From contig JADCGK010000003.1 of assembly GCA_020249045.1 (NCBI GenBank), positions 17,077 to 81,076 on the forward strand: DNA of 64,000 nt. Reading direction: 5' to 3'. Of the stretch, positions 8,556 to 58,355 are shown one piece after another; within the stretch, counting starts at the first letter, position 1; each line of letters starts with the position of its first letter. This DNA comes from Azospirillum sp. GTDB lineage: Bacteria; Pseudomonadota; Alphaproteobacteria; CACIAM-22H2. A program made the translations under genes and the position numbers. A model generated the notes under the pieces. The model was not told where the DNA came from and did no database searches. It was given only the letters and a program-made list of their open reading frames with translations.

Positions 8556-9564
8556 GATGGATGGCATGTCGCAAACGGGGCAAATCGACGACGCGAAAAG
8601 CACCGCGGAACATGCTTTGGAGCGCACGCCGAAGGCGGCCGACGAAACCAAGCGCTTCGAGTTCGTGCACAAGGTCTTCGCGGTTCCCGGCGCGATCTTC
8701 GAACTCGACGACCACACCAACGAACCGGTCTTGAAGCTCGACCTCGGCGATTTGCGCGCGGCGATGACGTTCGAGACGCTGCGCGCGAATTTCGGCCTGA
8801 CGGCGGGCTCGCCCGACGACCGCGCGCTGACGGACGTCGGCAAGGCGTTGGGATTCGTGCGCTGCGTTCGGCCGGGCGACACGATCCCGGCGGAATTGCT
8901 CGACGGCTCGGCGTCCTGGCGGGTCGAACCGCGCCATCTGGCCACCGCCCAAGGGCGGATCACGGCGGGCCTGCTCGCGTGGCTGGGCGAGGGCACCAAA
9001 GCGGAAAGCGCCGTCGAACTGGCCGCCCTCGCGGCCGACGCGGGCGTCAAAGCCAATGTGCAGACGGCCTTCGGCCGCTTGGCCGTGCGCATGGGCCTGC
9101 CCGATGACCGACGCGGTGAAGTCGTCGATGCGGTCGATCGGCTGGCGAACGAACTGTCCTATATCGAGGCATTGCGCGAGAAGGTCGGCCAGACGCGGCG
9201 CGCGGTCGAATTGTTCAAACGTCTGCGCGCGGCCTACAAACGCGAACGCGGGGCGTCGGAAAGTCTGGAGCGGATCGTCCATCTGCTCGAGCGGCCGGTG
9301 AAACGCTACGAAGCGCGCCTTGCCGAAGTCGACGCGCAGACCGGCGAGATCCAGAACACGATCATCAACCTCGCCCGGCAGATCGCCTTCGTTCGCGAGG
9401 CGCGCGATTGGCTGCATCGGGAGATCATGCGCTGGGACGACGTCCTGGAAACCTGGGCTGGGGAATCGGCCGAACCGTCCCACGCCCAGCAACGCAAGAT
9501 CGGCGCGACCTATCGCTTTGCGGCGCGATATTTTCCGCTCGTCGAAGAATGGGTCCACGGCTGA
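8556..9564 (+). CDS. Hypothetical protein with coiled-coil region
   Basis: ATG at 8556 verified. 336 aa. No recognisable catalytic motifs. Directly upstream of, and co-oriented with, the hybrid histidine kinase. Confidence 0.5.
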
Positions 9565-9604
9565 GTTTGCCGGCCGCGACGGGCCGGTTCATAGTCCTCG
9601 AGTC

Positions 9605-11479
9605 ATGTCCGCCGCCGATTCTCCACCGCCCGTGCCGCCGCCCGGAAACCCGCCGGCCGAAGCCGCGCGCGTGCGCGGCTGGTTCGCGGGCCTTGTGGGA
9701 TGCCTTGCGCTAGCGGCGCTGGCCGGCGTTGCGGCACTCGTCGAGCAACCGGGTGCCGTCGAGGCCGCGATCGCGGCAGTACTCTCGGGATTGGGTTGCG
9801 CCGCGGGCCTTGCGCGCGCGTGGCGTGGCGAAGTCGAGCGGCCTTTGGCGCGGCTGGCGCGCGCGGCCGAGGATTTGGCGGGCATCGCACCCGCCGCCGA
9901 TACGGCGCCCCGCGCGGCGATGGAACGTGCGCTCGCCGCCTTGCGCGAAGCGGGGGCCGCGCGCACGCGCGCGGGCCGCGCGGCCGAAAACGCGCGACGT
10001 GCCAAATCGGCGTTCCTGACGGCGATGAGCCACCGGATCCGCACGCCCATGCACGGCATCCTGGGCTTGGTCGAAACCCATGCGGCGGGCGAGATGTCCG
10101 CCGAACGGCGCGCGACGTTGCGCACGGTGCGCCAGTCGGCCGAGAACCTTCTCGCCGTCGTCGACGATCTGGTCGATTACGCGCGCATCGATTCCGATTC
10201 GATCGCCGTCGACCGCCGGGCGACCGACGCGGGCGATCTTCTGGAGCAGGCGGCGGTCAATCTGGCGGGGCTCGCCGAAGCCAAGGGACTGGCGTTGTCG
10301 TGCTTCGTCGATCCCGAAATCGTCGAACGCTTCAAAATCGATCCGTTGCGCGTGCGCCAAGTGCTGTTCAACCTGATCGGCAACGCGATCGGCCGTACGC
10401 AAGCGGGCTTCGTGCATGCGCGCTTGTCGCTGGCGGGCGGACAGTTGATCTTCGCGATCGAGGACAGCGGCGCGGCGCTGGCGCCGGATACGATCGCGCG
10501 TTTGCTCGATCCTTCGGGCGAGCCGGGCGACGGCCTCGCCGCGTTCCGCGCCGGCGCGACGGGGTTGGGCCTGCCAGTGTGCCGGGCGTTGGCCGAACGC
10601 ATGGGCGGACGCATCCGCGTGCAGTCGCGCGAGTCCGGCGGCGCGGTTTTCGCGCTCGAGCTTCCGGCCGAACCGGCCGGCGGCGGCTTGCAGCCTTTGC
10701 CGGCCGCGGACGTGCTGGAAGGCCGGCGCGTGCGGATCGCGGGTGCGGCGGATCCCGCGCATGCGGCGGTGGCGGCCTATCTGATCGCGGCGGGCGCCGC
10801 GATCGTCGGGCCGCGCGACCCCGCCGATCTCGCCATCGCCCTGCCCGGCGCCGGAGATTTCGGTCCGCCCGGTCCCAAGCGACTGCGGTTGACGACGCTG
10901 CCCCCCGTGGGTCCGCCCGAGGAGGCCGATGCGGGCGCCACGCTGTTGCGCCGTTCGGCGATCGTCGCGGCGGCGGCGCGCGCGCTCGATCTCGCCGACG
11001 AAGGGATCGAGGAATCCGACCCCGCGACCTTGCCGCCGTGCGAACCGCCCGCGCGCGACGCCGCGCGCGCGCAAGGCGCGCTCATCCTCGCCGTCGACGA
11101 CCATCCGGTGAACCGCGAGGTCGTGGCCCTGCAACTCGCGCGGTTGGGTTACCTCGCGGACACCGCGGCGAGCGGCGCCCAAGCCTGGACCATGTGGCGC
11201 GCGGAACGCTACGGCCTGATCGTCACCGATCTGCACATGCCCGATTTCGACGGCTTCGAACTCGCCCGGCGCATCCGCGCGGCCGAAATCCAGGAGGACC
11301 GCCCGCGCGTGCCGATCGTCGCGCTGACGGCCGCCACGGGGGCGGAGAACCTCGCGGCCTGCTACGAGGCCGGGATGGACGGCGTATTGGCCAAGCCGCT
11401 GCCGTTCCGGGGGTTGGCCGAAGCCATCCGCCGCTATCTTCCCGCCCGCGCGGACGTCAAAACCAGCCGCGACGCTTGA
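9605..11479 (+). CDS. Membrane-anchored hybrid sensor histidine kinase/response regulator
   Basis: ATG at 9605 verified. Two N-terminal TM segments. H-box SHRIRTPMHGILG. HATPase N/G boxes. A roughly 130-aa Ala/Pro-rich linker. C-terminal REC (ILAVDDHPVNREV...DLHMPDFDGFEL...LAKPL). Confidence 0.8.
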   Translation: MSAADSPPPVPPPGNPPAEAARVRGWFAGLVGCLALAALAGVAALVEQPGAVEAAIAAVLSGLGCAAGLARAWRGEVERPLARLARAAEDLAGIAPAADTAPRAAMERALAALREAGAARTRAGRAAENARRAKSAFLTAMSHRIRTPMHGILGLVETHAAGEMSAERRATLRTVRQSAENLLAVVDDLVDYARIDSDSIAVDRRATDAGDLLEQAAVNLAGLAEAKGLALSCFVDPEIVERFKIDPLRVRQVLFNLIGNAIGRTQAGFVHARLSLAGGQLIFAIEDSGAALAPDTIARLLDPSGEPGDGLAAFRAGATGLGLPVCRALAERMGGRIRVQSRESGGAVFALELPAEPAGGGLQPLPAADVLEGRRVRIAGAADPAHAAVAAYLIAAGAAIVGPRDPADLAIALPGAGDFGPPGPKRLRLTTLPPVGPPEEADAGATLLRRSAIVAAAARALDLADEGIEESDPATLPPCEPPARDAARAQGALILAVDDHPVNREVVALQLARLGYLADTAASGAQAWTMWRAERYGLIVTDLHMPDFDGFELARRIRAAEIQEDRPRVPIVALTAATGAENLAACYEAGMDGVLAKPLPFRGLAEAIRRYLPARADVKTSRDA

Positions 11480-12446
11480 AATAGAGATAGGGCAGCACCG
11501 CCGACGCGGCCATGGCGACGAGCGCCATCGGATAGCCCCACGCCCAGCCGAGTTCGGGCATGTTCGCGAAGTTCATGCCGTAGATCGTACCGAGCAGCGT
11601 CGGCGGCATCAGCACCACCGAGACGACCGAGAAGAGTTTGATGATCCGGTTTTGCTCGATGTTGATCTGGCCGAGCGTCGCGTCGAGCAGGAAGTTGACC
11701 TTGCGCGCGTCGTAATCGGCGTGCTCCATCAACGAGGCGACGTCGCGCGCGATCGACTTGATGCGCGCCTTGATCTCCTTGGTGTGCTTGCGCCCGTCGC
11801 CGTCCAGAACGCTCGCAAGGAAACTCGCCAAACGCTGCAAGCCGAGCATGCTTTCCCGCGCGGTCGAACATAGATCGTCGAGCCGCCCCAGATCGCGCAG
11901 GACCTGCTGCAGGTCGCGCTCCTGCTCGGTTTGCCGCGCGCCCGCGCCGGGCGTCACGAAGATGGCGCGGCTGGTCGCGTCGAGATCGAGGCCGATCCGC
12001 TCCAGAATGTCGGCGAGGCGATCGACGAAGGCTTCGATGAGACCCAACAACGCCTCCTCGCCGGTCGATCCGGCGGTTTGGCGCTGGATCCGCTGCGCGA
12101 AGGCGCGCACCGGCCGCGGGTCGTTGTGGCGCACCGTGACCAGCGCGCGATTGGCGAGGACGAAGGTGAACGCGTCGGCCGCGGGCACGGGTTCGTCCGC
12201 GCGCGCGAGCACCGTCACGGTCATGTAGATCGCCCCGTTTTCGACGTAGTACCGCGCGGACGGTTCGATCGCGCGCATCTCCTCGTGCGTGGGCAGCGCA
12301 AGGCCGTAAGCCGCGTCGACCTTCGCGCGCTCGTCGTCCGTCGGCGCGAATAGATCGATCCACAACGCGCCCGCGGGCAACGCATCGGCCGCAGCGATTT
12401 CCCGCCGCTCCAAACCCGCCGCCGTCGGTACGAACGCCACGATCAT
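11457..12446 (-). CDS. corA: Magnesium/cobalt transporter CorA
   Basis: Start MIVAFVPT verified (cat at 12444-12446). C-terminal YGMNF motif and two TM helices. 329 aa. Confidence 0.85.
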   Translation of the reverse strand: MIVAFVPTAAGLERREIAAADALPAGALWIDLFAPTDDERAKVDAAYGLALPTHEEMRAIEPSARYYVENGAIYMTVTVLARADEPVPAADAFTFVLANRALVTVRHNDPRPVRAFAQRIQRQTAGSTGEEALLGLIEAFVDRLADILERIGLDLDATSRAIFVTPGAGARQTEQERDLQQVLRDLGRLDDLCSTARESMLGLQRLASFLASVLDGDGRKHTKEIKARIKSIARDVASLMEHADYDARKVNFLLDATLGQINIEQNRIIKLFSVVSVVLMPPTLLGTIYGMNFANMPELGWAWGYPMALVAMAASAVLPYLYFKRRGWF

Positions 12447-12595: not shown

Positions 12596-12644
12596 AACCC
12601 TAGCCAACCGGGTAAAACCCGCCTGAAATCAAGGGGATGGCGTG

Positions 12645-13118
12645 ATGGATTGGACACCGGAGCAGATCTCGGAGCTGACCCGCCTGTGGGGTGAGGGTTT
12701 GACGACCGCCGAGATCGGCAAGCGCTTGGGAATCTCGAAAAACGCCGTCGTGGGTAAGGCCCATCGCCTGCACTTGCCCGCGCGTCCGTCGCCGATCAAG
12801 CGCACCGGCCCGCGTCCGCAAGTTTTCCGGCAGACCGCGACGGTGCGCACCGCCCCACCCCGCCTAGCCGCGCCGCGGCCGGCGCCCGCCGTACAGCCGA
12901 CCTCGGCACAGGCGCTGCGGGCGCTGGCCAATCAGCCTTCGGCCAAGCGTCTGCCGATGATGGCGCTGAACTCGTCGACCTGCCGTTGGCCGATCGGCGA
13001 TCCCGGCGATGCCGAGTTCCATTTCTGCGGCGAGCGCGCGATCGACGGCAAGCCCTATTGCTCGGCGCACGCGTCGATCGCCTACGTCAAGGTGAAGCCG
13101 AGGACCGAGGCCGCCTGA
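12645..13118 (+). CDS. gcrA: Cell-cycle transcriptional regulator GcrA
   Basis: MDWTPEQISELTRLWGEGLTTAEIGKRLGISKNAVVGKAHRL ... CRWPIGDP...FCG...YCSAH is a hallmark GcrA N- and C-terminal signature. ATG at 12645 with AAGGGGA 8 nt upstream; the track ORF begins at the GTG at 12642. Confidence 0.85.
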   Translation: MDWTPEQISELTRLWGEGLTTAEIGKRLGISKNAVVGKAHRLHLPARPSPIKRTGPRPQVFRQTATVRTAPPRLAAPRPAPAVQPTSAQALRALANQPSAKRLPMMALNSSTCRWPIGDPGDAEFHFCGERAIDGKPYCSAHASIAYVKVKPRTEAA

Positions 13119-13154
13119 CGGCTTGAATTCCGCCGCTTTGTTGGGTTGACTGGG

Positions 13155-13191
13155 ACGGGGTGCGCTTTTCGGGCGTGCCCCGTTCGCTTTC
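13155..13191 (+). terminator. Putative rho-independent terminator after gcrA
   Basis: An 11-bp stem (ACGGGGTGCGC / GCGTGCCCCGT, two G-U pairs) with loop TTTTCGG, followed by TCGCTTTC. Confidence 0.4.
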
Positions 13192-13205
13192 GGGAGTTCG
13201 ACGCG

Positions 13206-14696
13206 ATGACAGATCCGGGCCTGCTGATCGCCAAAGGCGGCGAACCGCACCGTCTGCTGCTGAAATTCGCCAACCGTCACGGCTTGATCGCCGGCGCCAC
13301 GGGCACGGGCAAAACCGTGACGCTGCGCGCGATGGCCGAGGCGTTGTCGCTGGAAGGCGTGCCGGTCTTCGTCGCCGACGTGAAGGGCGATCTGTCGGGC
13401 CTCGCCAAACCGGGCGCCGAGAACGCGAAGTTCCGCACGCGCGCCGACGAACTGGGCATGCCCGATTACGATTTCGCCGCGTGCCCGACCGTGTTCTGGG
13501 ACGTCTTCGGCGAGAACGGCCATCCGCTTCGCGCGACGATTTCCGAGATGGGCCCGCTGCTGCTCGCGCGGTTGCTCGAACTCAACGAAACCCAAGCGGG
13601 GGTTCTGCAACTCGTCTTCAAGGTGGCCGACGACGAAGGCCTGCTGCTGATCGACCTCAAGGATCTGCGTGCGATGCTGACGCACGTCGCCGAGAACGCG
13701 GCCGAGTATCGCGAGCGCTACGGCAACGTTTCCTCGGCGTCGGTGGGCGCCATCCAGCGCGGCCTTCTGGCGCTCGAAGCGCAAGGCGGCGACAAATTCT
13801 TCGGCGAGCCCGAACTCGACATCGCGCATCTGCTGGGCGTGGGCGAGGACGGGCGCGGGATCGTGTCGGTGCTGGCGGCGGAGATTCTGTTCCAGCGGCC
13901 GAAGCTCTACGCGACGTTTTTGCTGTGGCTGCTGTCGGAATTGTTCGAGCATCTGCCGGAAGCCGGCGACGTCGCCAAGCCCAAACTCGTCTTCTTCTTC
14001 GACGAGGCGCATCTGCTGTTTGCCGACGCGCCTAAAGCGTTGGTCGAGAAGGTGGAGCAAGTCGTCCGCCTGATCCGCTCGAAGGGCGTGGGCGTCTATT
14101 TCGTCACCCAAAATCCGCTCGATGTGCCCGAAACCGTGCTGGGCCAGCTCGGCAACCGCGTGCAACACGCGTTGCGCGCCTTCACCCCGCGCGATCAGAA
14201 GGCCGTCAAAGCCGCCGCGCAAACCTTCCGCGCGCGCCCGGGCGTCGACACCCAAACGGCGATCCTCGAATTGGGCGTCGGCGAGGCGTTGGTGTCCTTC
14301 CTGGATGAGAAGGGCGTGCCCGTGCCGGTCGAACGCGCGCGCGTGGTCCCGCCGCGCACGCGGTTGGGGCCGCTCGACGCTTCCGAACGCCTGGGTGCGA
14401 TCAACAATTCGCCGCTTTACGGCGTGTACGAGGAAGCCGTCGAGCGCGAAAGCGCCTACGAAAGACTGAAGGGCGGGGCTGCGGGCAACCCGGCGGCGGC
14501 GGGCGGCATCGCGGGAACGCTCGGCACGATCTTCGGCGGCGGCACCGTCGGCCGGCCGGGCGCGCGCGGCCGCGCGCAGCCCAAATCCTTCGGCGAGCAG
14601 ATCGCCGCGTCGGTCGCCCGGTCGGTCGCCTCGTCGGTCGGTCGGCAGATCGGCGCGCGCATCGTGCGCGGCGTTTTGGGTTCGATCCTCAAATGA
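13206..14696 (+). CDS. DUF853-family (YjgR/HerA-like) P-loop NTPase
   Basis: ATG at 13206 verified. Walker A GATGTGKT, Walker [10 protein letters not shown]. 496 aa. Gly-rich disordered C-terminus. Confidence 0.8.
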
Positions 14697-15223
14697 AACG
14701 TCTGGCGATCGCGGCCGCACTGATCGTCGCCGCCCCCCTTGCCGCGCAAACGCCCGCGCGGTTGACGCCCGGCGAAACGACGGTGGCTTGCGTGGGCCAA
14801 GCGGGCGATCCGGCATGCGCGACCGCGACCTTCTTCGCCTGCGCGTTGCGCCGCACGCCGGAAACCTGCGCGGCCGTCGGGCTGGCCGAACCGCCGCGTC
14901 TGGCCGACGAGCAAAGCGCGATCGAATGGGTGATCGAGCGCGCCTCGACGATCCGCGAGCGGGACGTGACGGACGACCTCAAACACCTGCCCTGGTTCCG
15001 CGCGGGCAACACGTTGATCGAAGCCCAAGTGCGCAAATGCGCCGCCAGCCTGCCCGATTGCGCCGCGGAAACCTGGGACGATTGGCAGATCTATCTCGCA
15101 CCGGAAGGCGGCCAGTTCCGCGTGGTCGGCTGGCGCGGGGACAGCGAGCCCGACGGCCCTCCGGAAATTCCCGAGGCATTCCGCCCGCAAGGGCCCGCCG
15201 AAGCTCCGGTTCCTGCCGAATAA
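14693..15223 (+). CDS. Secreted cysteine-rich hypothetical protein
   Basis: ATGA overlap with the DUF853 stop. Signal peptide [19 protein letters not shown]. Seven Cys in the mature part. Confidence 0.5.
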
Positions 15224-15328: not shown

Positions 15329-15874
15329 ATGTCCGTCGTGAACGACGACACGCTGCGCCAAGTGCGCGAGGAAATGGTGGCGTTGCTGCCGCGCTTGCGG
15401 CGCTTCGCGCGCGGTCTGACCGGCGTGGCCGATCAGGCGGACGATTTGGTGCAGGCGGCGTGCGAACGCGCGCTGACCCGCATCGACCAGTGGCAACCGG
15501 GCACGCGCCTGGACAGCTGGATGTTCCGCATCGTCCAGACGATCTGGCTGGACGAGCGGCGCGCCGTCAAGGTTCGCACCGGCGAAGGCCGGATCGACGC
15601 CGAGATGGCCGAAGACGAACTCGCCTTCGACGGCGGGCGCGGTCTCGAGGCGCACATGACCTACGAGGCCGTGCGCGCGGCGATGGCGGAATTGCCGGCG
15701 GAACAGCGCGCCGTTCTGGTTCTCGTTTGCGTGGAGGGCCAGAGCTACAAGGAAGCGGCGGCGGCGCTGGACATTCCGATCGGCACGGTGATGAGCCGGC
15801 TGGCGCGCGCGCGCGCGGGCCTTGTGCGGCGGTTGGGCGAAAGCGGGTCGAGCCTCGCCTCGCCGGCCGAATAG
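15329..15874 (+). CDS. ECF-subfamily RNA polymerase sigma-70 factor
   Basis: ATG at 15329 verified. Region 2 (DLVQAACERAL...WMFRIVQTIWLDERR) and region 4 (LPAEQRAVLVLVCVEGQSYKEAAAALDIPIGTVMSRLARAR) motifs. Confidence 0.85.
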   Translation: MSVVNDDTLRQVREEMVALLPRLRRFARGLTGVADQADDLVQAACERALTRIDQWQPGTRLDSWMFRIVQTIWLDERRAVKVRTGEGRIDAEMAEDELAFDGGRGLEAHMTYEAVRAAMAELPAEQRAVLVLVCVEGQSYKEAAAALDIPIGTVMSRLARARAGLVRRLGESGSSLASPAE

Positions 15875-15892
15875 TAAGGAACGGTGCGGATC

Positions 15893-16942
15893 ATGGATCG
15901 CCAATGGGACATCGAACTGGCCATGCGCTACGCCGACGGCGCCGCCGACGCGGCTGAAGCCGCGCGCGTCGAAGCCGAGATGACGCGCGATCCGGACCTC
16001 GCCGCTTGCGTGGAGGCGATGCGCCAGAGTGCGGCGCTCGCGCGCGGCGCGCTCAACGGCGTGCTGCACGAGGAGGTACCCCGGCGCCTGATCGACGCGA
16101 TCCGCGCGGCACCCGCCCCGGCGCCCGCGATCGACGACGAAACGTTGATGGCGTGGTGCGACGGCGAGTTGGCGCCCGCCGCCGCCGCGCGCGTGGGCCA
16201 AGCGGTGGCGCGCGATGCCAAACTCGCCGCGCGCGCAACCGCGTTCCGCCGCACGGCCGAACTCGCGCGCGGCGCGCTCGCCCCGGTCCTCGCCGAGCCG
16301 ATCCCGCAGCGGTTGATCGACGCCGTCCGCGCCGAGCCCGCCAAATCGGCCGAAATCGTGACGCTGCGTCCGCGCGCGGTCCCGCGCCGGACGCTCGCTT
16401 GGGCGCTCGCCGCGTCGGTCGCGTTCGTCGCGGTGTTGGGTGCGGGCGGCGTATTCACGGGCCGCATCGCGGCCCCCGAAGGTCTGCACTTCGCCTCGAC
16501 CTCGGACCGCTGGCTCGACAACGTCGCGGGTTTCTACGAGCTTTACTCAAGCACCCAGGCGCGCGAAGGCCGCCTGCTGGTGGATTTCGGCCCCGAGGAT
16601 GTGCCCCAACTCGCCGAATGGTTCGGCGCCCGCCTGAACCGCACGCTGGCCGTGCCCGATCTCACCGCGCACGGCTTCGCCCTGCAGGGCGGGCGCATGG
16701 TGGTGATCGGCGGGCGCCCGGCGGCACAACTGCTCTACGCCAACGGCGCCGGCGAACTGGTCGGACTCGCCATCGCCTTTTCGACCGCGGGCGAACGCGC
16801 GGCGCGCGCCGCCCGGCGCGGCGAGGTCGACATCGTCCACTGGCACCGCAACGGCTACGGCTACGCGTTCGCCGGGCGGATCGGCGCGGAGCGCTTGCGC
16901 ACCCTCGCCGACCGCGCGTGGTCCGATCTCGAATCGATTTGA
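15893..16942 (+). CDS. Transmembrane anti-sigma factor (cognate to the upstream ECF sigma)
   Basis: Immediately downstream of the sigma gene. ATG at 15893; the track ORF begins at the GTG at 15884. One TM helix (LAWALAASVAFVAVLGAGGVF). N-terminal region contains an internal duplication (LARGAL...RLIDAxRAxP twice). Confidence 0.6.
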   Translation: MDRQWDIELAMRYADGAADAAEAARVEAEMTRDPDLAACVEAMRQSAALARGALNGVLHEEVPRRLIDAIRAAPAPAPAIDDETLMAWCDGELAPAAAARVGQAVARDAKLAARATAFRRTAELARGALAPVLAEPIPQRLIDAVRAEPAKSAEIVTLRPRAVPRRTLAWALAASVAFVAVLGAGGVFTGRIAAPEGLHFASTSDRWLDNVAGFYELYSSTQAREGRLLVDFGPEDVPQLAEWFGARLNRTLAVPDLTAHGFALQGGRMVVIGGRPAAQLLYANGAGELVGLAIAFSTAGERAARAARRGEVDIVHWHRNGYGYAFAGRIGAERLRTLADRAWSDLESI

Positions 16943-16957: not shown

Positions 16958-17500
16958 TCAGCCGTTCTTCGGCGGCCGGCCGCGGCGCGGGCGCGCGTGC
17001 AGCGGGCTCGCATCGTCCGTGCGCGCGAGCGCGCGCATCGTGCCGACCATCTGCTGGCGCAAGCGCCGATCGGTGATGTCGTAATAGGCGCGCACGAGTT
17101 CGATCGTCTCGCGTTTGGCCATCGGATCGAGGTCGTAGATCGGCGCGGGACCCTCGGCCACGCCCTGCATGTGCTTGCGGCCGTAGCTCGACACGTCCGC
17201 CGGCATTTCCTCGAAGAAATAGCCGATCGGCACGTCGAGCACGCGCGCGCACTCGAAGATGCGCGAGGCGGACAACCGGTTGGTGCCGCGCTCGTTCTTC
17301 TGCAACTGCTGGAACGTGACGCCGATGAGGCGTCCCAACTCCTGCTGGCTCATGCCCAGCAGCGTGCGCCGTTCGCGCAACCGCTTGCCGACGTGCACGT
17401 CGATCGGGTTCGGACCCGGCGAGGCGCGGCCGCGCCGGCCGCGGAAACGCAAGGGGCGCTCGGCGGCGCGCGAACTCGTTTGCTTGGTGGCACGGGCCAT
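16958..17500 (-). CDS. XRE-family helix-turn-helix transcriptional regulator
   Basis: Start MARATKQ verified (cat at 17498-17500) with a GAGGAG RBS. HTH motif LLGMSQQELGRLIGVTFQQLQKNERG. 180 aa. Confidence 0.75.
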   Translation of the reverse strand: MARATKQTSSRAAERPLRFRGRRGRASPGPNPIDVHVGKRLRERRTLLGMSQQELGRLIGVTFQQLQKNERGTNRLSASRIFECARVLDVPIGYFFEEMPADVSSYGRKHMQGVAEGPAPIYDLDPMAKRETIELVRAYYDITDRRLRQQMVGTMRALARTDDASPLHARPRRGRPPKNG

Positions 17501-17551
17501 ATTCGATTTCTCCTCGAAATTCGCAGTCAATTTCCCGGACGGCTACATTGT

Positions 17552-17583
17552 ATCGATTGAGCGTTTTGCATTTGCGAATCGAT
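17552..17583. promoter_or_regulatory. Inverted repeat ATCGATT-N18-AATCGAT in the AT-richer divergent XRE/cckA-like intergenic region (includes GANTC site GAATC at 17576-17580)
   Basis: Read directly: tATCGATTgagcgttttgcatttgcgAATCGATg. Local GC is well below the window average. Confidence 0.3.
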
Positions 17584-17700
17584 GCATTCGGGACACACCA
17601 ATGTAGTACTCCGCGCTTCGTCGTTTCAACGGCGAATTCCCACAACCATGCGCGAAGCCCCCTCCCTTCCCCGTCCGCGCCGCGCTAAACTGAGTCCGAA

Positions 17701-19617
17701 ATGAAGCTATTCGGATCATTCGGCGGCGGCGGCGACGGCTGGCGCGACTTCTTCGAAACGGCGCCGGTCGGGCTCTTCGAGATCGATTCCGGCGGCCGAT
17801 TCGTTCGCGCGAACAAGCGATTCGCCGAAATCCTGGGGCGTCCCGCGCCCGAAATCCTCGGCGGCCTGCGATGGGCGGACGTGCTCGCCGAGCCGCTTTC
17901 AATCGCCGATCCCGCCGCAATTTTTGCGGATCCGGCGCAGAGTTCCGGCGATCTGCGGCTTCGCCGCGTGGCCGGCCCCCCGGCGCATGTGACGGTCGAT
18001 ATCGACCGAACCAGCGGCCGCATCCGAGGCCTCGTACGCGACGCCGGACGCGAGCGCGAAATGGCGGAAGCGTTACGCCGCAGCGAACGGACGTTCCGCC
18101 GGTTCTTCGAGAACGCGCCGGTGGGCGTGGCGCTCGTCGATCCGGACGGTCGCCTGACCGAAACCAACGCCGCCTTCCGCAAACTGATCGCGACGGACCG
18201 CGAGACGGCGATCGGCCGGCCGTTGGCCGATTGCGTGGCGCCGGAAGATCGCGAGGATTTGCCGCGGCGCCTGCGGAAACTCGCCGCCGACGCCGTCGCG
18301 CGCGACGCGCCCGACCGTTTGGCCCTGCGCTTGCGCGCCTTCGACGCGGGCGCGGGTCGGGACATCCCCGTGGCGGTCTACGCCCGGCCGCTCGACGACG
18401 TCGCCGGCGCCGAAGGCGCGACGATCCTGCACTTCCTCGACGTGACCGAACAGCGGCGACTCGAGACGCAATTCGCGCAATCCCAGAAGATGCAGGCGGT
18501 CGGCCAACTTGCGGGCGGAGTGGCGCACGATTTCAACAACCTGCTGACGGCGATGATCGGTTTTTGCGATCTGCTGCTGCTGCGCCATCAGCCCGGCGAT
18601 TCGTCGTTCGCCGACATCATGCAGATCCGCCAGAACGCCAACCGCGCGGCGAATCTGGTGCGCCAGTTGCTCGCTTTCTCCCGCCAGCAGACGCTGCAGC
18701 CCAAAGTGCTCGACGCGAGCGAGGCGCTGACCGAGCTTTCCCATCTGCTGCGCCGCCTGATCGGCGCGGCAATCGAGTTGAAGGTCGTGCACGCGCGCGA
18801 CCCTTGGCCGGTGCGCGTCGATCAAGGGCAGCTCGAGCAGGTCATCATCAATCTGGCCGTGAACGCGCGCGACGCGATGCCCCACGGCGGCACGCTGACC
18901 ATCCGCACGTCCAACGCCTCGCGCGCGAAGCCCGAACGCCACGGCGACGAGGAGATTCCGGCCGGCGACTATGTGCGCATCGACGTGGAGGATACGGGCA
19001 CGGGCATTCCGCCCGACATCCTCGGGCGGATCTTCGAGCCGTTCTTCTCGACCAAGGAAGTCGGCTCGGGAACCGGGCTGGGGCTTTCGACCGTCTACGG
19101 CATCGTTCGCCAGACCGGCGGCTTCGTGCTGGTGGAGACCGAGCAAGGCAAGGGATCGACCTTCACGCTGCTTTTGCCGCGTTGGACGGGGCCGGCGGGT
19201 GCGCAAGGCGGCGTGGAGCCCGCGCGCAAACGCGACCTGACCGGTGCCGGCACCATCCTGCTGGTCGAGGACGAGGATGCCGTCCGCCTGTTCGGCGCGC
19301 GCGCGCTGCGCAACAAGGGGTACAAGGTGGTCGAGGCCAAAACGGGGGATGCCGCGCTCGACATCGTGCGCGAGATGGGCGCCGAAATCGATCTTCTGAT
19401 CACCGATGTCGTCATGCCCCAAATGGACGGAACCACGCTGATCCGCGAGGCGCGCAAGCTTTTTCCGGCGCTGAAGATCGTCTGCATTTCCGGGTATGCG
19501 GAGGAGCAGTTCCGCCAGAACCTGGAAGGCTTCGAGAACGTCCATTTCCTGCCCAAGCCCTTCAGCCTGGATCAGCTCGCAGGGAAAGCCAAGGAGGCGA
19601 TGCGCGCCTCGCCCTGA
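17701..19617 (+). CDS. cckA: CckA-like hybrid histidine kinase (PAS-PAS-HisKA-HATPase-REC) without transmembrane region
   Basis: ATG at 17701 is the first codon after an in-frame TAA at 17686. H-box region [34 protein letters not shown], and [15 protein letters not shown], match my recollection of CckA signatures. C-terminal REC ([11 protein letters not shown]...DVVMPQMDG...LPKPF). Confidence 0.7.
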
Positions 19618-19626
19618 CCGCGGCGG

Positions 19627-21447
19627 TCAGAGGGCGCCGGCGCGGATCCAAAAACGGAAGACGCTGCCCGCGCCCGGCGCGCTCTTCGCCTCGATGCCGC
19701 CGTCCATCGCGGCGGCCAAACGCTTGCAGATCGCAAGCCCCAATCCGGTCCCCCCGCGCGTGCGCGTCGTCGAGGTGTCGGCCTGATAGAACGGCACGAA
19801 CAGCCGGGCGAGCGTCGCCTCGTCCATGCCGATGCCGGTATCGGCGACTTCGCCGGTCAAGCGCCAGCGGCCGTCCGGCTCCCGGTCGGCGGTGAAGCGC
19901 ACGTCGATGCGGCCGCGCTCGGTGAACTTGATCGCGTTGCCGACCAGATTGACGACGACCTGGCGCAAGCGGCCGCCGTCGCCCGCGACACGGTGCGGCA
20001 GACCGGGCGCGATCCGGAACACGAGCGCGTTGCCACGCTCCGCCGCACGGGCCTGAAGACCGGCGACCGCCGATTCGATCGTTTCGACCGGGTCGTAGGC
20101 GCCATGGGCGAGTTGGAGTTTGCCCGCCTCGAGCTTGGCGAGATCCAGCAGGTCGTCGACGATCGCGATCAAGGCTTCGGCCGAAGCGCGCGCGATCGCC
20201 GCCCACCGCGCTTGCTGGGGTGCCAGCGGCGAATCCTCGATCAGATCGAGCGTGCCGATCACCCCGTTGAGCGGCGTACGCAACTCGTGACTCACCATCG
20301 CGAGGAATTCCGACTTGGCGCGGTTGGCGGCCTCGGCGGCGAAGCGCGCGCGCTCGGTTTCCGTCTCGTCGCGGATCGTGGCGAACACGCGCCGGGCGAC
20401 GCGCGCGGCGTCGAACTCCACGCGGAAATCCTCGCGCACGTAGCGGATCGCGCCGTCCGGGCGGACCATCCGATAGCGCCGCGTGCCGCGCGCCTGGGGC
20501 GTGCGGAAGACGTCGAGAAGGCCCTCGCGGTCGTCCGGGTGCACGCAAGCGAGCCAGGCTTCGCGCGTCGCGGGCGCGTTCTCCGGGACGCCCCAAATCG
20601 CGCGGGCGCGCGGCGACCAATTCTGCGCGGCGTCGTCGCGGTCGGCCGTCCACCACCCCAGTTCGGCGACGTTCAAGGCCAGCGCCAGATGCGCCTGGGT
20701 TTCGTTGAGCGCGGTCATGTCGCGCACGACCGTCGCGATGCCGCCCGCGCGGGTGCGGCGTTCGATCGTGCGGTAGACGCGCCCCACATGCCCGCCCTCG
20801 ACGATCGGCGGTCCCGGATTGCGGTGCCGTTCGAGCCGCTCGAGACGCCAAATCTCCCGGACGGCGGCGTCGCTGAATTGCGGCAAGACCGACGCCAGAT
20901 GCGCGATCAGCGCCTCGAACTGCACGCCGTGGCGCAGCACCGGCGCGAGTTGGGGGAACATTTCGAGGTAGCGGCGGTTGTAGACGACGACACGGTCGGC
21001 GGCGTCGCACAGGCAGAACCCGTCCGACAGCGATTCGAGTCCGTCGGCGATCAAGGCCTCGGCGTCCTTCAACGCCGTCACGTCGACGACGGTGCCGATC
21101 CGCAAGGAGCCTTCGGCCGCCTGGCCGATTTCGCGGAACCAGCGATACTCGCCCGAGTCCGACCGAGCGCGGTAGACGACATCCATCCGCTCGCCGCCGC
21201 GCAACGCGCGATGGGCGGCCAAGTAGGCGCGTCTGTCGTCCGGATGCAGGTATCTCGCCAGCATCAACAGGTCCGCGCGCGCGAAGGCGACGGGATCAAA
21301 GCGCCAAACGCGCGGCAGATTGGGCGAGTAGCGGAATCGGCCGACGCTTACGTCCCACTGCCACGTCGCGGCACCCGAAATCTCGAGCGCCTGTTCGAGA
21401 TGCGCGGCCAGCATCGTGCGGTCGGGATCGATGTCGCTTGCGTTCAC
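19627..21447 (-). CDS. Soluble multi-PAS sensor histidine kinase (no receiver)
   Basis: GTG start at 21445-21447 per the track; an alternative ATG at 21412-21414 (MLAAHLEQ). Three PAS-like segments. H-box SHELRTPLNGVIG. HATPase N, G1 and G2 boxes. Confidence 0.8.
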   Translation of the reverse strand: MNASDIDPDRTMLAAHLEQALEISGAATWQWDVSVGRFRYSPNLPRVWRFDPVAFARADLLMLARYLHPDDRRAYLAAHRALRGGERMDVVYRARSDSGEYRWFREIGQAAEGSLRIGTVVDVTALKDAEALIADGLESLSDGFCLCDAADRVVVYNRRYLEMFPQLAPVLRHGVQFEALIAHLASVLPQFSDAAVREIWRLERLERHRNPGPPIVEGGHVGRVYRTIERRTRAGGIATVVRDMTALNETQAHLALALNVAELGWWTADRDDAAQNWSPRARAIWGVPENAPATREAWLACVHPDDREGLLDVFRTPQARGTRRYRMVRPDGAIRYVREDFRVEFDAARVARRVFATIRDETETERARFAAEAANRAKSEFLAMVSHELRTPLNGVIGTLDLIEDSPLAPQQARWAAIARASAEALIAIVDDLLDLAKLEAGKLQLAHGAYDPVETIESAVAGLQARAAERGNALVFRIAPGLPHRVAGDGGRLRQVVVNLVGNAIKFTERGRIDVRFTADREPDGRWRLTGEVADTGIGMDEATLARLFVPFYQADTSTTRTRGGTGLGLAICKRLAAAMDGGIEAKSAPGAGSVFRFWIRAGAL

Positions 21448-27996: not shown

Positions 27997-28237
27997 GGAG
28001 CGGACTTCCTTTTGGACCGGAATTGCGACCCCCTCGAGCGGGCCGCAACCCCATTGAAAAACAACAGAAAACCAGGCGGGATAGATCGCCTTCCCACCGG
28101 CGCGGGCGAGTAGCTACCACAGCCCCCCTCGCGATGCAATAAGCCTCGGCCCGTCGTCGGCGGAAGTCGGTGAATTCAGACTCGATTAAGCGCTTCGCGA
28201 GATAGTCTTGGCGTCTCGCAGGGATTTTCAGCCGACA

Positions 28238-29836
28238 ATGACCGCTTCGCCCGACATGGTGACAAAGCGACGCACCCGCGCCGCGACGCCGTTCCTGGCG
28301 GCGGCGGTGGCGAGCGCTTTGATCTTCTTGGGCGCGTTCATGGCTGCGGAGTTCGACCGGCAGGCGACGCGCACGCACGGCGAAGCGCACTACGCCGACC
28401 TCCTGCACTTGCAAAGCGAGCGCGTGGAAAGCTTCGTCGACCGCATCGCGCAAAGCCTGCGTTTCATCGCCTATTTGCAGGAGCGCGACGGCGCGCCGCC
28501 CGATCTCGCCGCACTCGTCGCCGGCAATCGGCTCGACGCCAGCGACGTGCTGCAATTCGCCTCGATCGACGCCGAGGGCATGGTTCGCGCCTCGAATTTG
28601 CCGCTGGGCCGGGCGTCGGTTTCGATCGCCGATCGGCCGCATTTTCGCGCCGCCGCGCAAGGCGGGGACGGGGTGCAATTCAGCCGCCCCGTGTTGGGCC
28701 GCGTGTCGGGGCAATGGAGCGTGCAGATGGTGCGCGCGGTGCGCTCGGAATCGGGGGCGTTTCTCGGGGTCGTCGGGGCGTCGATCGACACGGGCGTGTT
28801 GGATCGCTTGCTGGACGTGCCGGGCTTCGAGGGCGGCTTCGCGCTGATCGGCGCGGACGGCGCCGTCCGCGCGCGCACGCCGCCGAACTCGGAGCGGCGC
28901 AACGTCGACGATCCGGCGCATCCGTTGGTCGCGCGGATGCGCGAATCGGAAACGGGCGTTTGGGAAGGTCCGCCGCCGTGGGCCGAAACGCCGAAGGTCG
29001 CGCTGTGGCGGAAGGTGGATTCGCATCCGCTTTACGTCGTCGCGGCCGTTCCCGCGGCGACGCTGACCGCCGACGCGACCGCGCGTGCGCGCTACTACTG
29101 GGCCGCCGCGGGCCTCGCCGCGGGCGGCACTTTCGTCTTCGCCGCGTTCGCGGCACGCCGGCGCGCGCGTCTGGAGGCGACGCTGGCACGCGCGCGCGCC
29201 GCCGCGATCGAACAGGCCCGTCTCCTCGATTCCTTGGGCACGGATCTGCGCGGCCCCGTCGACATCCTGCGCTGGTCGATCGATACGCTCGCCGACCCGG
29301 CCGACGAACCCGCACGCCGTCGAGCACTCGCCGATTTGCGCCGGGCGGACGCCGCCTTGGCCCGCGCGGCGGACGACGCGGCCGTTTTGGCCCGACTGAT
29401 GCGCGATTCCTCGGCGGTCGAATCCCGGCCGATCGACGCGCGCGATTGGGCGCGCGGCGCCTTCGAAACGGCGCGCGCGCGCGCGGGCGGCGCGGGCGTC
29501 ACGTGCGATTTGGCGTTGGATTTGCCCGAGGGCTTGCGCATCGTCGCCGACGAGAAGGGATTGCGCCGCGTGGCGGAAACGCTGCTCGGCGCGGCGTTCG
29601 AGCGCGCGGGCCGCAGCGGGCGCGTCGGTTTTTCGGTCGGCGCGCGCGGGCTCGACGCCCGCACCGTGGAAATCGCCATCGCGGTTTCGGCATCCGGCGA
29701 AGCCTTGCGCCCGGACGCGCAAACCGGCGGCATGGCGACGGCGCTGGCCCAGGCGCTGGGCGGGCGCGTCGAACGCCTGGCGGGGCCCAACGGCACGCTC
29801 GACGTTTTCAAAGCCGGCTTCGCGCGCGCGGCCTGA
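28238..29836 (+). CDS. Membrane sensor with periplasmic Cache-like domain and degenerate (pseudo) histidine-kinase module
   Basis: First ATG at 28238; the track ORF starts at the TTG at 28208. Two TM helices flank a roughly 240-aa periplasmic domain with a Cache-like DRPHF...GVQFSRPV core. The HisKA-like helix reads SLGTDLRGPVDIL, with no His at the phospho-acceptor position. In the HATPase-like region the N-box Asn and the G1 Asp are replaced (LLGAAFERAG; AVSASGEAL). Confidence 0.6.
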   Translation: MTASPDMVTKRRTRAATPFLAAAVASALIFLGAFMAAEFDRQATRTHGEAHYADLLHLQSERVESFVDRIAQSLRFIAYLQERDGAPPDLAALVAGNRLDASDVLQFASIDAEGMVRASNLPLGRASVSIADRPHFRAAAQGGDGVQFSRPVLGRVSGQWSVQMVRAVRSESGAFLGVVGASIDTGVLDRLLDVPGFEGGFALIGADGAVRARTPPNSERRNVDDPAHPLVARMRESETGVWEGPPPWAETPKVALWRKVDSHPLYVVAAVPAATLTADATARARYYWAAAGLAAGGTFVFAAFAARRRARLEATLARARAAAIEQARLLDSLGTDLRGPVDILRWSIDTLADPADEPARRRALADLRRADAALARAADDAAVLARLMRDSSAVESRPIDARDWARGAFETARARAGGAGVTCDLALDLPEGLRIVADEKGLRRVAETLLGAAFERAGRSGRVGFSVGARGLDARTVEIAIAVSASGEALRPDAQTGGMATALAQALGGRVERLAGPNGTLDVFKAGFARAA

Positions 29837-57100: not shown

Positions 57101-57182
57101 TTCCGCCCCGGTCACCGTGCCGTAACGCAAGCGGACTAAGACTCCCCTTGTTGTCGCGTGACAGCGGAGGGGTGTGCGTGAG

Positions 57183-58355
57183 ATGTTAGTTTCGAACGCA
57201 ACCGTCAGGAGATTCGAGGCAGTGGACGACGGGCCGCAAGATCGGCGCGATGCGCTCGACGTCGGCGCCCTGCGCGCGATCGTCGATGCCTTGCCGCTGT
57301 TCGTGAACGTGAAGACGCGCGACAGCCGCTACGTCTACATGAACGCCTTCCAAGCCGCGACCTACGGCACGACGCCCGCACTGGCGGTCGGCCGCACCGC
57401 GGCGGAATTGCTCGGCGCGGATTACGGGGCCTACACCGGCGGCATCGACCGCATGGTGCTGGAGACGGGCAAGGCGGTCGCGAACCTCGACGAGCGTTAC
57501 GCGGGCATCGACGGCCGCGAGCGCGACTGGCTGACGACCAAATTGCCCTGGCGCGGCGCCGACGGCGCAACGCAAGGCGTGGTCACGATCGCGCTCGACG
57601 TGACCGACAAGAAGGCGTCCGAACGCGCCCTCGCCGACGCGCTGGTGCGCTCGGAGGCGGCGAACCGCGCCAAGACCGCCTTCATACGCACGGTCAGCCA
57701 CGAATTGCGCACGCCGCTGAACGCCGTGATGGGCTTCGGCGAACTGATCGCGGGCGGGGACCTGCCGCCCGCGCGCGCGGCCGAATACGCGCGCCTGATG
57801 CTCGAAAGCGCGCATGGTTTGCTCGCGCTGATCGACGGGGTCATCGAATTGTCGAGTTTGAGCGGCGGAGGGGCGCCCTATCCGGCCGCCCCCTCGGCGA
57901 TCGACGAGGCCGTCGCGGGCGCACTGGCCGGCGCCGAGGAAGCCGCGAAGGCGCGCAACATCGCCCTGGTCGCGGCGGTGGAACCGGATCTGCCATCTTT
58001 ACGGTGCGAGCGGGCGGCTTTGCGCCGCATGCTCGATCCCCTGATCGCCAACGCGATCAAATTCGGCCGCGAAGGCGGCACGGCGTCGGTGACGGCCACG
58101 CGCGCCGAAGGCGGCGGGATACGGGTGATCGTCGCCGACGACGGCATTGGGATCGCGCCCGAAGACATCGCCGCCTGCCTGGAACCGTTCGGGCAGGTGG
58201 AAAGCGGGCTCACGCGACGGCATGGCGGCATCGGCTTGGGCTTGCCTTTGGTGAAGGCGCAAATCGAGGCGCATGGCGGGACTTTGGCTTTGGAAAGCCG
58301 CAAAGGCGCCTTCACCCGTGTGACGATTGTTTTTCCGCTGGGGCGGGTTGCCTAA
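57183..58355 (+). CDS. Soluble PAS sensor histidine kinase
   Basis: ATG at 57183 (GGAGGGG upstream); the track ORF starts at the GTG at 57174. H-box SHELRTPLNAVMG. HATPase N/G boxes. Confidence 0.8.
   Translation: MLVSNATVRRFEAVDDGPQDRRDALDVGALRAIVDALPLFVNVKTRDSRYVYMNAFQAATYGTTPALAVGRTAAELLGADYGAYTGGIDRMVLETGKAVANLDERYAGIDGRERDWLTTKLPWRGADGATQGVVTIALDVTDKKASERALADALVRSEAANRAKTAFIRTVSHELRTPLNAVMGFGELIAGGDLPPARAAEYARLMLESAHGLLALIDGVIELSSLSGGGAPYPAAPSAIDEAVAGALAGAEEAAKARNIALVAAVEPDLPSLRCERAALRRMLDPLIANAIKFGREGGTASVTATRAEGGGIRVIVADDGIGIAPEDIAACLEPFGQVESGLTRRHGGIGLGLPLVKAQIEAHGGTLALESRKGAFTRVTIVFPLGRVA

Follow-up and report, generated by a model that had tools for sequence, protein, structure and literature searches.

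The gene and its product

A cckA-type gene encoding a hybrid histidine kinase without a transmembrane (TM) segment was analysed in a 64,000-nucleotide stretch of DNA from Azospirillum sp. (assembly GCA_020249045.1, contig JADCGK010000003.1, positions 17,077 to 81,076 of the forward strand), referred to here as the window, in whose numbering all coordinates are given. The coding sequence lies on the forward strand at positions 17701–19617 and encodes a polypeptide of 638 amino acids; its description draws on the list of open reading frames (ORFs), Pfam and NCBIfam profiles, Kyte-Doolittle hydropathy and a structural model computed with AlphaFold2. An in-frame TAA at 17686–17688 is followed by four sense codons and then by the ATG at 17701, so the ORF begins at the first start codon past the stop; an initial reading made from the sequence without database searches (the sequence-only reading) had mistakenly placed its beginning at the first codon past the stop. 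The next start codon does not occur before residue 121. With a third-position GC content of 0.84 (genome GC 69%), domain E-values down to 1e-25 and full-length homologs at 45–99% identity, 17701–19617 represents a real gene and not a chance ORF of high-GC DNA.

The polypeptide consists of two PAS domains, a dimerisation and histidine phosphotransfer (DHp) domain, a catalytic ATPase (CA) domain and a receiver (REC), in that order. Pfam and the AlphaFold2 model agree on this arrangement, bearing out the PAS-PAS-HisKA-HATPase-REC order of the sequence-only reading. PAS-A comprises residues 12–114 (17734–18042; Pfam PAS_8 at residues 14–63) and adopts a PAS fold in the model with a predicted local distance difference test (pLDDT) score of about 90. 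PAS-B follows at residues 138–247 (18112–18441; Pfam PAS_4 at 136–253, and the model). The DHp/HisKA domain at residues 249–329 (18445–18687) and the CA/HATPase domain at residues 335–494 (18703–19182) were delimited from Pfam (HisKA at 268–330, HATPase_c at 374–494), the model and matches in the PDB, with the roles of DHp residues taken from published work (PMC5026420). The receiver covers residues 518–635 (19252–19605; Pfam Response_reg at 519–628, and the model). All these features are on the forward strand. The H-box is CckA-like, as had been recognised from the sequence, and its alignment with Caulobacter CckA (5IDJ) identifies His276 (18526–18528) as the phospho-acceptor; the receiver phospho-acceptor Asp569 (19405–19407), Lys619 and the G-box residues are also kept, as seen in an alignment of conserved residues. 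The AlphaFold2 model, for which an alignment of 48 sequences was supplied, has a mean pLDDT of 82, and low confidence is limited to residues 1–11 and to the inter-domain or loop residues 260–272, 329–331 and 500–514. An independent assembly that is 99.5% identical across 12.2 kb (locus L083) encodes a protein of 640 amino acids with an Ala-Gly insertion after residue 215 and the substitutions S105G and V476A; the length polymorphism maps to a PAS-B loop, in the region of window position 18346.

Assignment to the CckA family

The two best NCBIfam matches of the 638-residue protein were the CckA equivalogs NF046020 (Brucella type, 671.5 bits) and NF046026 (Caulobacter type, 486.8 bits), the next family being an unrelated one at 345 bits. 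The match to NF046020 spans model positions 313–867 of 868, with positions 1–312 unmatched, and the match to the Caulobacter model begins at residue 123, PAS-A being too divergent to align with it. The best match in the PDB was the DHp-CA structure of Caulobacter CckA (5IDJ, 234 bits), followed by that of the CA domain (5IDM). Database homologs were scored for 8000 sequences, of which the best 120 were listed; most of the listed homologs, with TM-less ones among them, are named 'cell cycle sensor histidine kinase and response regulator CckA' in the KO-based annotation of JGI. A separate scan of genome contigs gave, among the matches listed, CckA homologs 44–57% identical in Azospirillum, Dongia, Thalassospira, Devosia, Bradyrhizobium, Sphingomonas and other named genomes, mostly aligned over residues 16–634, and its loci also served for the tree described below.

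Dubey et al. 2016 (PMC5026420) described residues that contact cyclic di-GMP and set CckA orthologs apart; in Caulobacter numbering, the CA domain contributes Y514, G515, K518 and W523, and the DHp domain contributes G318 and R374. Their equivalents in the 638-residue protein are Y466, G467, R470 and F475 at the primary site in CA, and G272 and R328 at the secondary site in DHp. The same G, R, Y, G, R, F pattern is present in TM-bearing CckAs of Azospirillum and Dongia, whereas an outgroup kinase of the HDFNN type has R, G, L and A at the four CA positions, so that Gly alone agrees. The NCBIfam and PDB matches, these residues and the tree described below support the assignment of the kinase to the CckA clade.

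Absence of transmembrane segments

The two N-terminal TM helices of canonical CckA are absent from this protein, in agreement with what had been read from the sequence. Across the 638 residues, the 19-residue mean of Kyte-Doolittle hydropathy peaks at 1.18, at a position within the CA domain, and TM-bearing homologs score 1.8–3.3 on the same measure. The TM helices are a feature of canonical CckA and not part of the definition of the catalytic family.

A miscalled start, a frameshift or an assembly error that removed an upstream TM-coding segment would also yield a protein of this kind; start-site miscalls are frequent in high-GC genomes, and the sequence-only reading had itself flagged 17501–17700 as the possible place of a lost segment. 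The divergent intergenic region, however, measures 170 bp (17531–17700), the divergent gene ending at 17530, and it holds the in-frame TAA four codons 5' of the ATG. No remnant of a TM-coding stretch was found in any frame of 17400–17760 or elsewhere in the window, either by three-frame translation or by tblastn in which the N-terminal 230 residues of eight TM-bearing homologs served as queries, and the upstream in-frame TM segment that the sequence-only reading had named as fatal to its interpretation was therefore not found. The tblastn searches matched only the PAS regions inside the ORF (residue 95 of homolog P0027, for example, aligned with residue 16). Upstream of the TAA the cckA frame remains open back to 17401, where it runs antisense to the divergent helix-turn-helix (HTH) gene and is not hydrophobic, and the other two frames are interrupted by stops within the intergenic region. 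The same start is found in L083 and in loci L085 and L081, which are 76–79% identical at the DNA level; the ATG is aligned in the three loci and the sequence upstream of it diverges. In L081 the preceding folC-like gene stops 49 bp short of the cckA ATG. An artefact is thereby effectively refuted, and the loss of the TM region is genuine and inherited, not an error of annotation or assembly. The intergenic region also holds two GANTC sites (17576 and 17692), a number not clearly above expectation, and the CtrA box TTAA-N7-TTAA had no match in the whole window.

Phylogeny and distribution of TM-less CckA

A neighbour-joining tree of 68 sequences was calculated with 200 bootstraps on an alignment of 513 columns that covers PAS-B through REC. 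Ten TM-less representatives formed a clade with 97% support, nested in TM-bearing CckAs of the Rhodospirillales (80%). Rickettsiales-like, Sphingomonas and Rhizobiales sequences branched farther out, in an order roughly that of the species tree, and a non-CckA kinase of the HDFNN type from Dongia lay outside the CckA set; deeper nodes were weakly supported (24–66%). The kinase under study thus fell inside the CckA clade and not outside it, the placement that had been set out beforehand as speaking against the assignment.

Among the 120 listed matches, 23 full-length homologs of 634–654 amino acids were 73–99% identical to the protein; they share its start, and a hydrophobic segment was present in none of them. 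NCBI names within this group include two Tagaea sp. and one Rhodospirillales bacterium, and metagenome-assembled genomes (MAGs) of Rhodospirillales also contribute to it. Nearly all full-length listed homologs at or below 62% identity have a single TM segment or a pair of them at the N-terminus; P0101, which lies just under the cut-off, is the exception. In the nearest TM-bearing group, of about 713 amino acids (for example P0027), TM segments at about residues 15–33 and 45–63 are separated from PAS-A by a linker helix of about 25 residues; PAS-A of P0027 is 39% identical to that of the 638-residue protein. In the TM-less clade, 12–27 residues occupy the place of the TM hairpin and linker; one example starts MAWSKFFGKQTG. 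Other layouts in the radiation have a TM hairpin directly before PAS-B (about 613 amino acids) or a TM hairpin with about 200 extra residues (about 800–860 amino acids), and this variety indicates that the sensor end of CckA is evolutionarily plastic here. The TM-less architecture itself is inherited across the Tagaea-related clade, where it occurs in two unrelated genomic contexts.

HMMER was also run exhaustively against 1.84 billion cluster representatives, and the best 150 CckA-like sequences were examined for a hydrophobic segment N-terminal of the H-box. None was present in 13 of the 150 (about 9%). Complete TM-less genes of the CckA clade were found among loci of named genomes and MAGs as well (L014, L021, L043, L051, L052 and L055); these are scattered in the tree, and the last four encode Rickettsiales-like MAG proteins. 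The relatives of L014 (P0121–P0134) form a second TM-less clade, whose sister P0135 has two TM helices. Like the protein described here, P0121–P0134, L021 and the Rickettsiales-like proteins are CckA-clade kinases without a hydrophobic segment, but they represent separate losses and differ in sensor content, with a single PAS domain in proteins of 519–535 amino acids or with extra domains. By these comparisons, at least three other lineages have each lost the TM segments of CckA independently. Given the 13 representatives and the scattered lineages, TM-less CckA is uncommon but not unique. Members of P0121–P0134 start with a conserved G-L-F-x-R-L-x-x-R-L-G-R-L-L-x-P helix, downstream of which some gene calls begin (relatives of L014:9587-11587). 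L014 is labelled as an Asaia MAG and its relatives are all environmental MAG proteins, and a TM-less CckA is not claimed as a trait of Acetobacteraceae.

The N-terminal peptide

The 638-residue protein begins with a short peptide (17701–17742, forward strand), delimited from the alignment of N-termini and the AlphaFold2 model, in which a φ-F-G motif (φ being a hydrophobic residue) is followed by a Gly-rich linker. All 23 full-length clade members, and the protein itself, have the motif among their first eight residues (for example MKLFG, MVFGKLFG and MAWSKFFGK), and the Gly/Ser-rich linker after it varies. In the model, residues 2–6 form a short helix, and pLDDT is below 50 over residues 1–11. 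The peptide resembles the tail of E. coli MinD, whose membrane-targeting sequence is KGFLKRLFGG (PMC5471200).

Genomic neighbourhood

The window is a portion of ordinary core chromosome, with thrS, a hybrid kinase gene, corA, gcrA and genes for a HerA-like ATPase, an extracytoplasmic function (ECF) sigma factor with its anti-sigma factor and an XRE-family HTH regulator, and further on a SpoU methylase gene, the asparaginase II gene, the ATP synthase F1 operon, priA, lpdA, sucA, sucC and mdh. The XRE-family gene (16958–17530, reverse strand; Pfam HTH_3) is divergent from cckA and encodes a regulator of 180–190 amino acids with an Arg-rich N-terminus; its position beside cckA is confined to the closest sub-clade (L083, L085 and L086). 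Its best NCBIfam match, to the Wolbachia Wmk family, is weak (33.9 bits) and far under the cut-off. On the other side, at 19627–21447 on the reverse strand, a gene convergent with cckA encodes a histidine kinase of 606 amino acids with Pfam matches to PAS_3 (two stretches), PAS_7, HisKA and HATPase_c. It has no receiver domain and no adjacent response regulator, and its description from the sequence as a convergent orphan triple-PAS kinase holds; the distance between the two stops had been put at 10 nt and is 9 nt (TGA at 19615–19617, TCA on the forward strand at 19627–19629). This kinase is kept 3' of cckA in L085 and L086 and not in L081.

The cell-cycle regulator gene gcrA (12642–13118, forward strand; Pfam GcrA, 131.7 bits) precedes cckA by 4.6 kb and is syntenic in L083 and L085, where the block from corA/gcrA to the PAS kinase is conserved with gcrA, the ECF sigma factor, the HTH gene and cckA. 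Two cell-cycle regulators thus share a neighbourhood in one syntenic block. Between gcrA and the sigma factor gene, 13146–15223 encodes the HerA-like ATPase (HerA_C, 726 bits) and then an overlapping gene of about 175 codons without a Pfam match, both kept in L083 and L085. At 15329–16942, likewise syntenic in these loci, the ECF sigma factor (PhyR_sigma2 match, 55.9 bits) is followed by an anti-sigma-like protein of 352 amino acids with a marginal zf-HC2 match. Two more histidine kinases are encoded on the forward strand, a hybrid kinase with hydrophobic segments at 9320/9605–11479 and a PAS kinase at 57174–58355, and a dCache-domain protein is encoded at 28208–29836. The kinases at 9320–11479, 19627–21447 and 57174–58355 were considered as CckA paralogs and rejected, their identity to the cckA product being about 25%, a value that for the two on the forward strand refers to the kinase core.

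In the second sub-clade (L081, on a 4.45-Mb contig), cckA follows trpFBA-accD-folC after the 49-bp gap and precedes a histidine phosphatase gene beside infB-nusA. In several TM-bearing and TM-less Rhodospirillales, although not in the window, cckA lies directly 3' of flhB (L084:8885-12142; L014, about 8900–11590; L021, about 8850–11920), an adjacency that fits the proposed ancestral tie of CtrA signalling to flagellar motility (PMC8116508). As the two TM-less sub-clades have different contexts and their TM-bearing sister follows flhB, synteny neither supports nor refutes orthology; Dubey et al. (PMC5026420) likewise reported that CckA lacks conserved synteny.

Discussion

The kinase is probably the CckA ortholog of a Tagaea-related lineage of Rhodospirillales, in a cytoplasmic form that arose when the TM hairpin and a linker of about 25 residues were deleted in the ancestor of the clade and a peptide of 12–27 residues, consisting of a φ-F-G motif and a linker rich in Gly and Ser, was fused directly to PAS-A. 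Its likeliest function would be that of a cytoplasmic bifunctional kinase/phosphatase feeding the ChpT-CtrA pathway. As a cytoplasmic dimer it would autophosphorylate on His276, and its own receiver would accept the phosphoryl group at Asp569, from which a ChpT-type phosphotransferase would carry it to CtrA. The phosphatase mode would set in when cyclic di-GMP bridges the CA site (Tyr466, Gly467, Arg470 and Phe475) and the DHp site (Gly272 and Arg328). Control would be exerted by soluble inputs, such as cyclic di-GMP, ADP and PAS-mediated oligomerisation or partner binding, and not by membrane-embedded clustering. We infer the relay and its partners, the phosphatase switch with its control by cyclic di-GMP, and the location in the cell from homology together with the activity of the equivalent Caulobacter fragment, CckA 70–691, which is kinase-active and inhibited by cyclic di-GMP in solution (PMC4853435).

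Several observations weigh against this interpretation. Both CckA model scores fall below the equivalog cut-off, which is 1000 bits for NF046020 and for NF046026, and NCBI names for the homologs are generic ('PAS domain-containing protein', 'ATP-binding protein') and do not mention CckA. The low scores follow from the absence of about 312 N-terminal model positions from the 638-residue protein, and the generic names of the TM-less homologs follow from the low scores. Two positions of the predicted cyclic di-GMP site are substituted (K518 to R and W523 to F), conservatively and in a manner common in the family and among TM-bearing CckAs. No chpT, ctrA, divL or cpdR was recognised among the approximately 25 ORFs of the window that were scanned (about 20 more were not), nor does the window contain a CtrA box. 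Kinase activation of CckA in Caulobacter depends centrally on tethering to the membrane and on clustering at the pole (PMC4853435), so that the activation of a freely soluble CckA would have to follow another logic. Lastly, the source genome, of which 64 kb were analysed, may encode another CckA elsewhere, with TM segments and with an identity to this one below about 56%.

The last of these points leads to the alternative that the gene is a CckA-derived paralog, whose product would act as a soluble branch kinase feeding ChpT beside a canonical TM-bearing CckA, much as CcsA does in Sphingomonas melonis. We regard this as quite unlikely. CcsA does provide a precedent for a second hybrid kinase that phosphorylates ChpT (PMC7232146), the CckA and DivL architectures of Rhodospirillales are reported to be difficult to identify and perhaps rearranged (PMC8116508), and the score below the equivalog cut-off would suit a paralog. 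The scan of genome contigs yielded, among the matches listed, only loci at most 57% identical and no Tagaea genome. Yet the TM-less clade sits where the species tree predicts, inside the Rhodospirillales CckAs and without a long branch, and the cyclic di-GMP positions specific to CckA are kept. Moreover, among the 120 best matches (at least 56% identity), the three large contigs with a TM-less gene (4.45, 2.14 and 0.60 Mb) contributed no second one, and the proteins named 'Tagaea sp.' are all TM-less; the other kinases of the window, at about 25% identity, are too distant to be candidates.

A different view of the N-terminus holds that the TM hairpin was exchanged for a peripheral anchor, the φ-F-G peptide serving as a membrane-targeting sequence on a flexible Gly-rich linker by which the kinase dimer or oligomer would bind the membrane reversibly. 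The strict retention of φ-F-G beside a variable linker is in keeping with this, as are the comparable membrane-targeting sequence of the MinD type (PMC5471200) and the dependence of Caulobacter CckA kinase activity on surface density (PMC4853435). The separate TM-less clade P0121–P0134 opens with a strongly amphipathic, Arg-rich helix (hydrophobic moment 0.68), and hydrophobic-basic starts occur in several other TM-less cluster representatives (MFFRKFQRARS, MIKHLFSRKQ and MIRQLLSLCR). The peptide in question, however, is Gly-rich and very short, its hydrophobic moment is modest (0.2–0.4), its modelled structure has low confidence, and a degron, a peptide that binds a partner or a mere leftover would be just as plausible. 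A test for an excess of hydrophobic-basic N-termini gave a weak result (5 of 16 for TM-less lineages, 7 of 72 for background N-termini; p ~0.04), with a criterion picked post hoc. A peripheral anchor is on balance unlikely. If it existed, membrane binding of CckA would be reversible and dependent on oligomerisation, association would be a regulated step of the kinase/phosphatase switch, and like N-termini in independent TM-less lineages would represent a recurrent evolutionary solution.

Taken as a cytoplasmic CckA ortholog, the protein can be set beside characterised kinases. CckA orthologs have been described as having one or more PAS sensors, DHp, CA and a C-terminal receiver with a 'variable number' of TM helices (PMC5026420). 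Caulobacter crescentus CckA (CC_1078; 5IDJ and 5IDM) has the same PAS-A, PAS-B, DHp, CA and REC domains, a nearly identical H-box and, as noted, the same or conservatively replaced cyclic di-GMP residues; it opens, however, with two TM helices (PMC5026420), whereas the protein described here opens 11–13 residues before PAS-A. The Caulobacter CckA is an integral membrane protein whose activity is tied to polar clustering, and its TM region has been proposed to sense membrane stress (PMC4853435, PMC5189948). The construct CckA(70-691)/CckAΔTM matches the domain content of the present protein exactly, but it was engineered, was used in vitro or as a dominant allele and lacks φ-F-G, whereas the truncation reported here is natural, fixed in a clade and accompanied by that motif. 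TM-bearing CckAs of Rhodospirillales (the 713-residue P0027 group and the Azospirillum, Stellaceae and Dongia type of about 800–860 residues) are 56–62% identical over residues 16–634, with the same order from PAS-A to REC and the same H-box string; they differ in their TM hairpin and linker helix, in about 200 more N-terminal residues in the long forms and, in several cases, in a position after flhB. Other hybrid kinases in or beside the CtrA circuit are CcsA of S. melonis, which feeds ChpT (PMC7232146), and ShkA of Caulobacter, which is cytosolic and controlled by cyclic di-GMP (PMC8534201); both are distinct paralogs outside the CckA orthogroup, whereas the present kinase groups with CckA.

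Both review articles and research papers present CckA as a membrane protein (PMC8116508, PMC9430884, PMC5189948), and a literature search found no description of a natural TM-less CckA. Genes for cckA have been reported in only 27–36% of Rhodospirillales genomes (PMC8116508); surveys may under-count cckA in this order, given that TM-less CckAs do not reach the equivalog cut-off and receive generic names at NCBI.

Histidine kinases are known to be modular in their N-terminal sensor regions, and TM-less proteins make up about 9% of the related cluster representatives, which limits the significance of the finding: the TM-less CckA is a natural variant of a well-known kinase, neither an error nor a new kind of system. 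The presence of an otherwise intact CckA without a TM helix across a free-living clade of Rhodospirillales nevertheless suggests that the pathway can operate in nature without an integral anchor, and it provides a natural test case for which of the CckA inputs (density sensing, DivL contact, cyclic di-GMP or stress) depend on the membrane.

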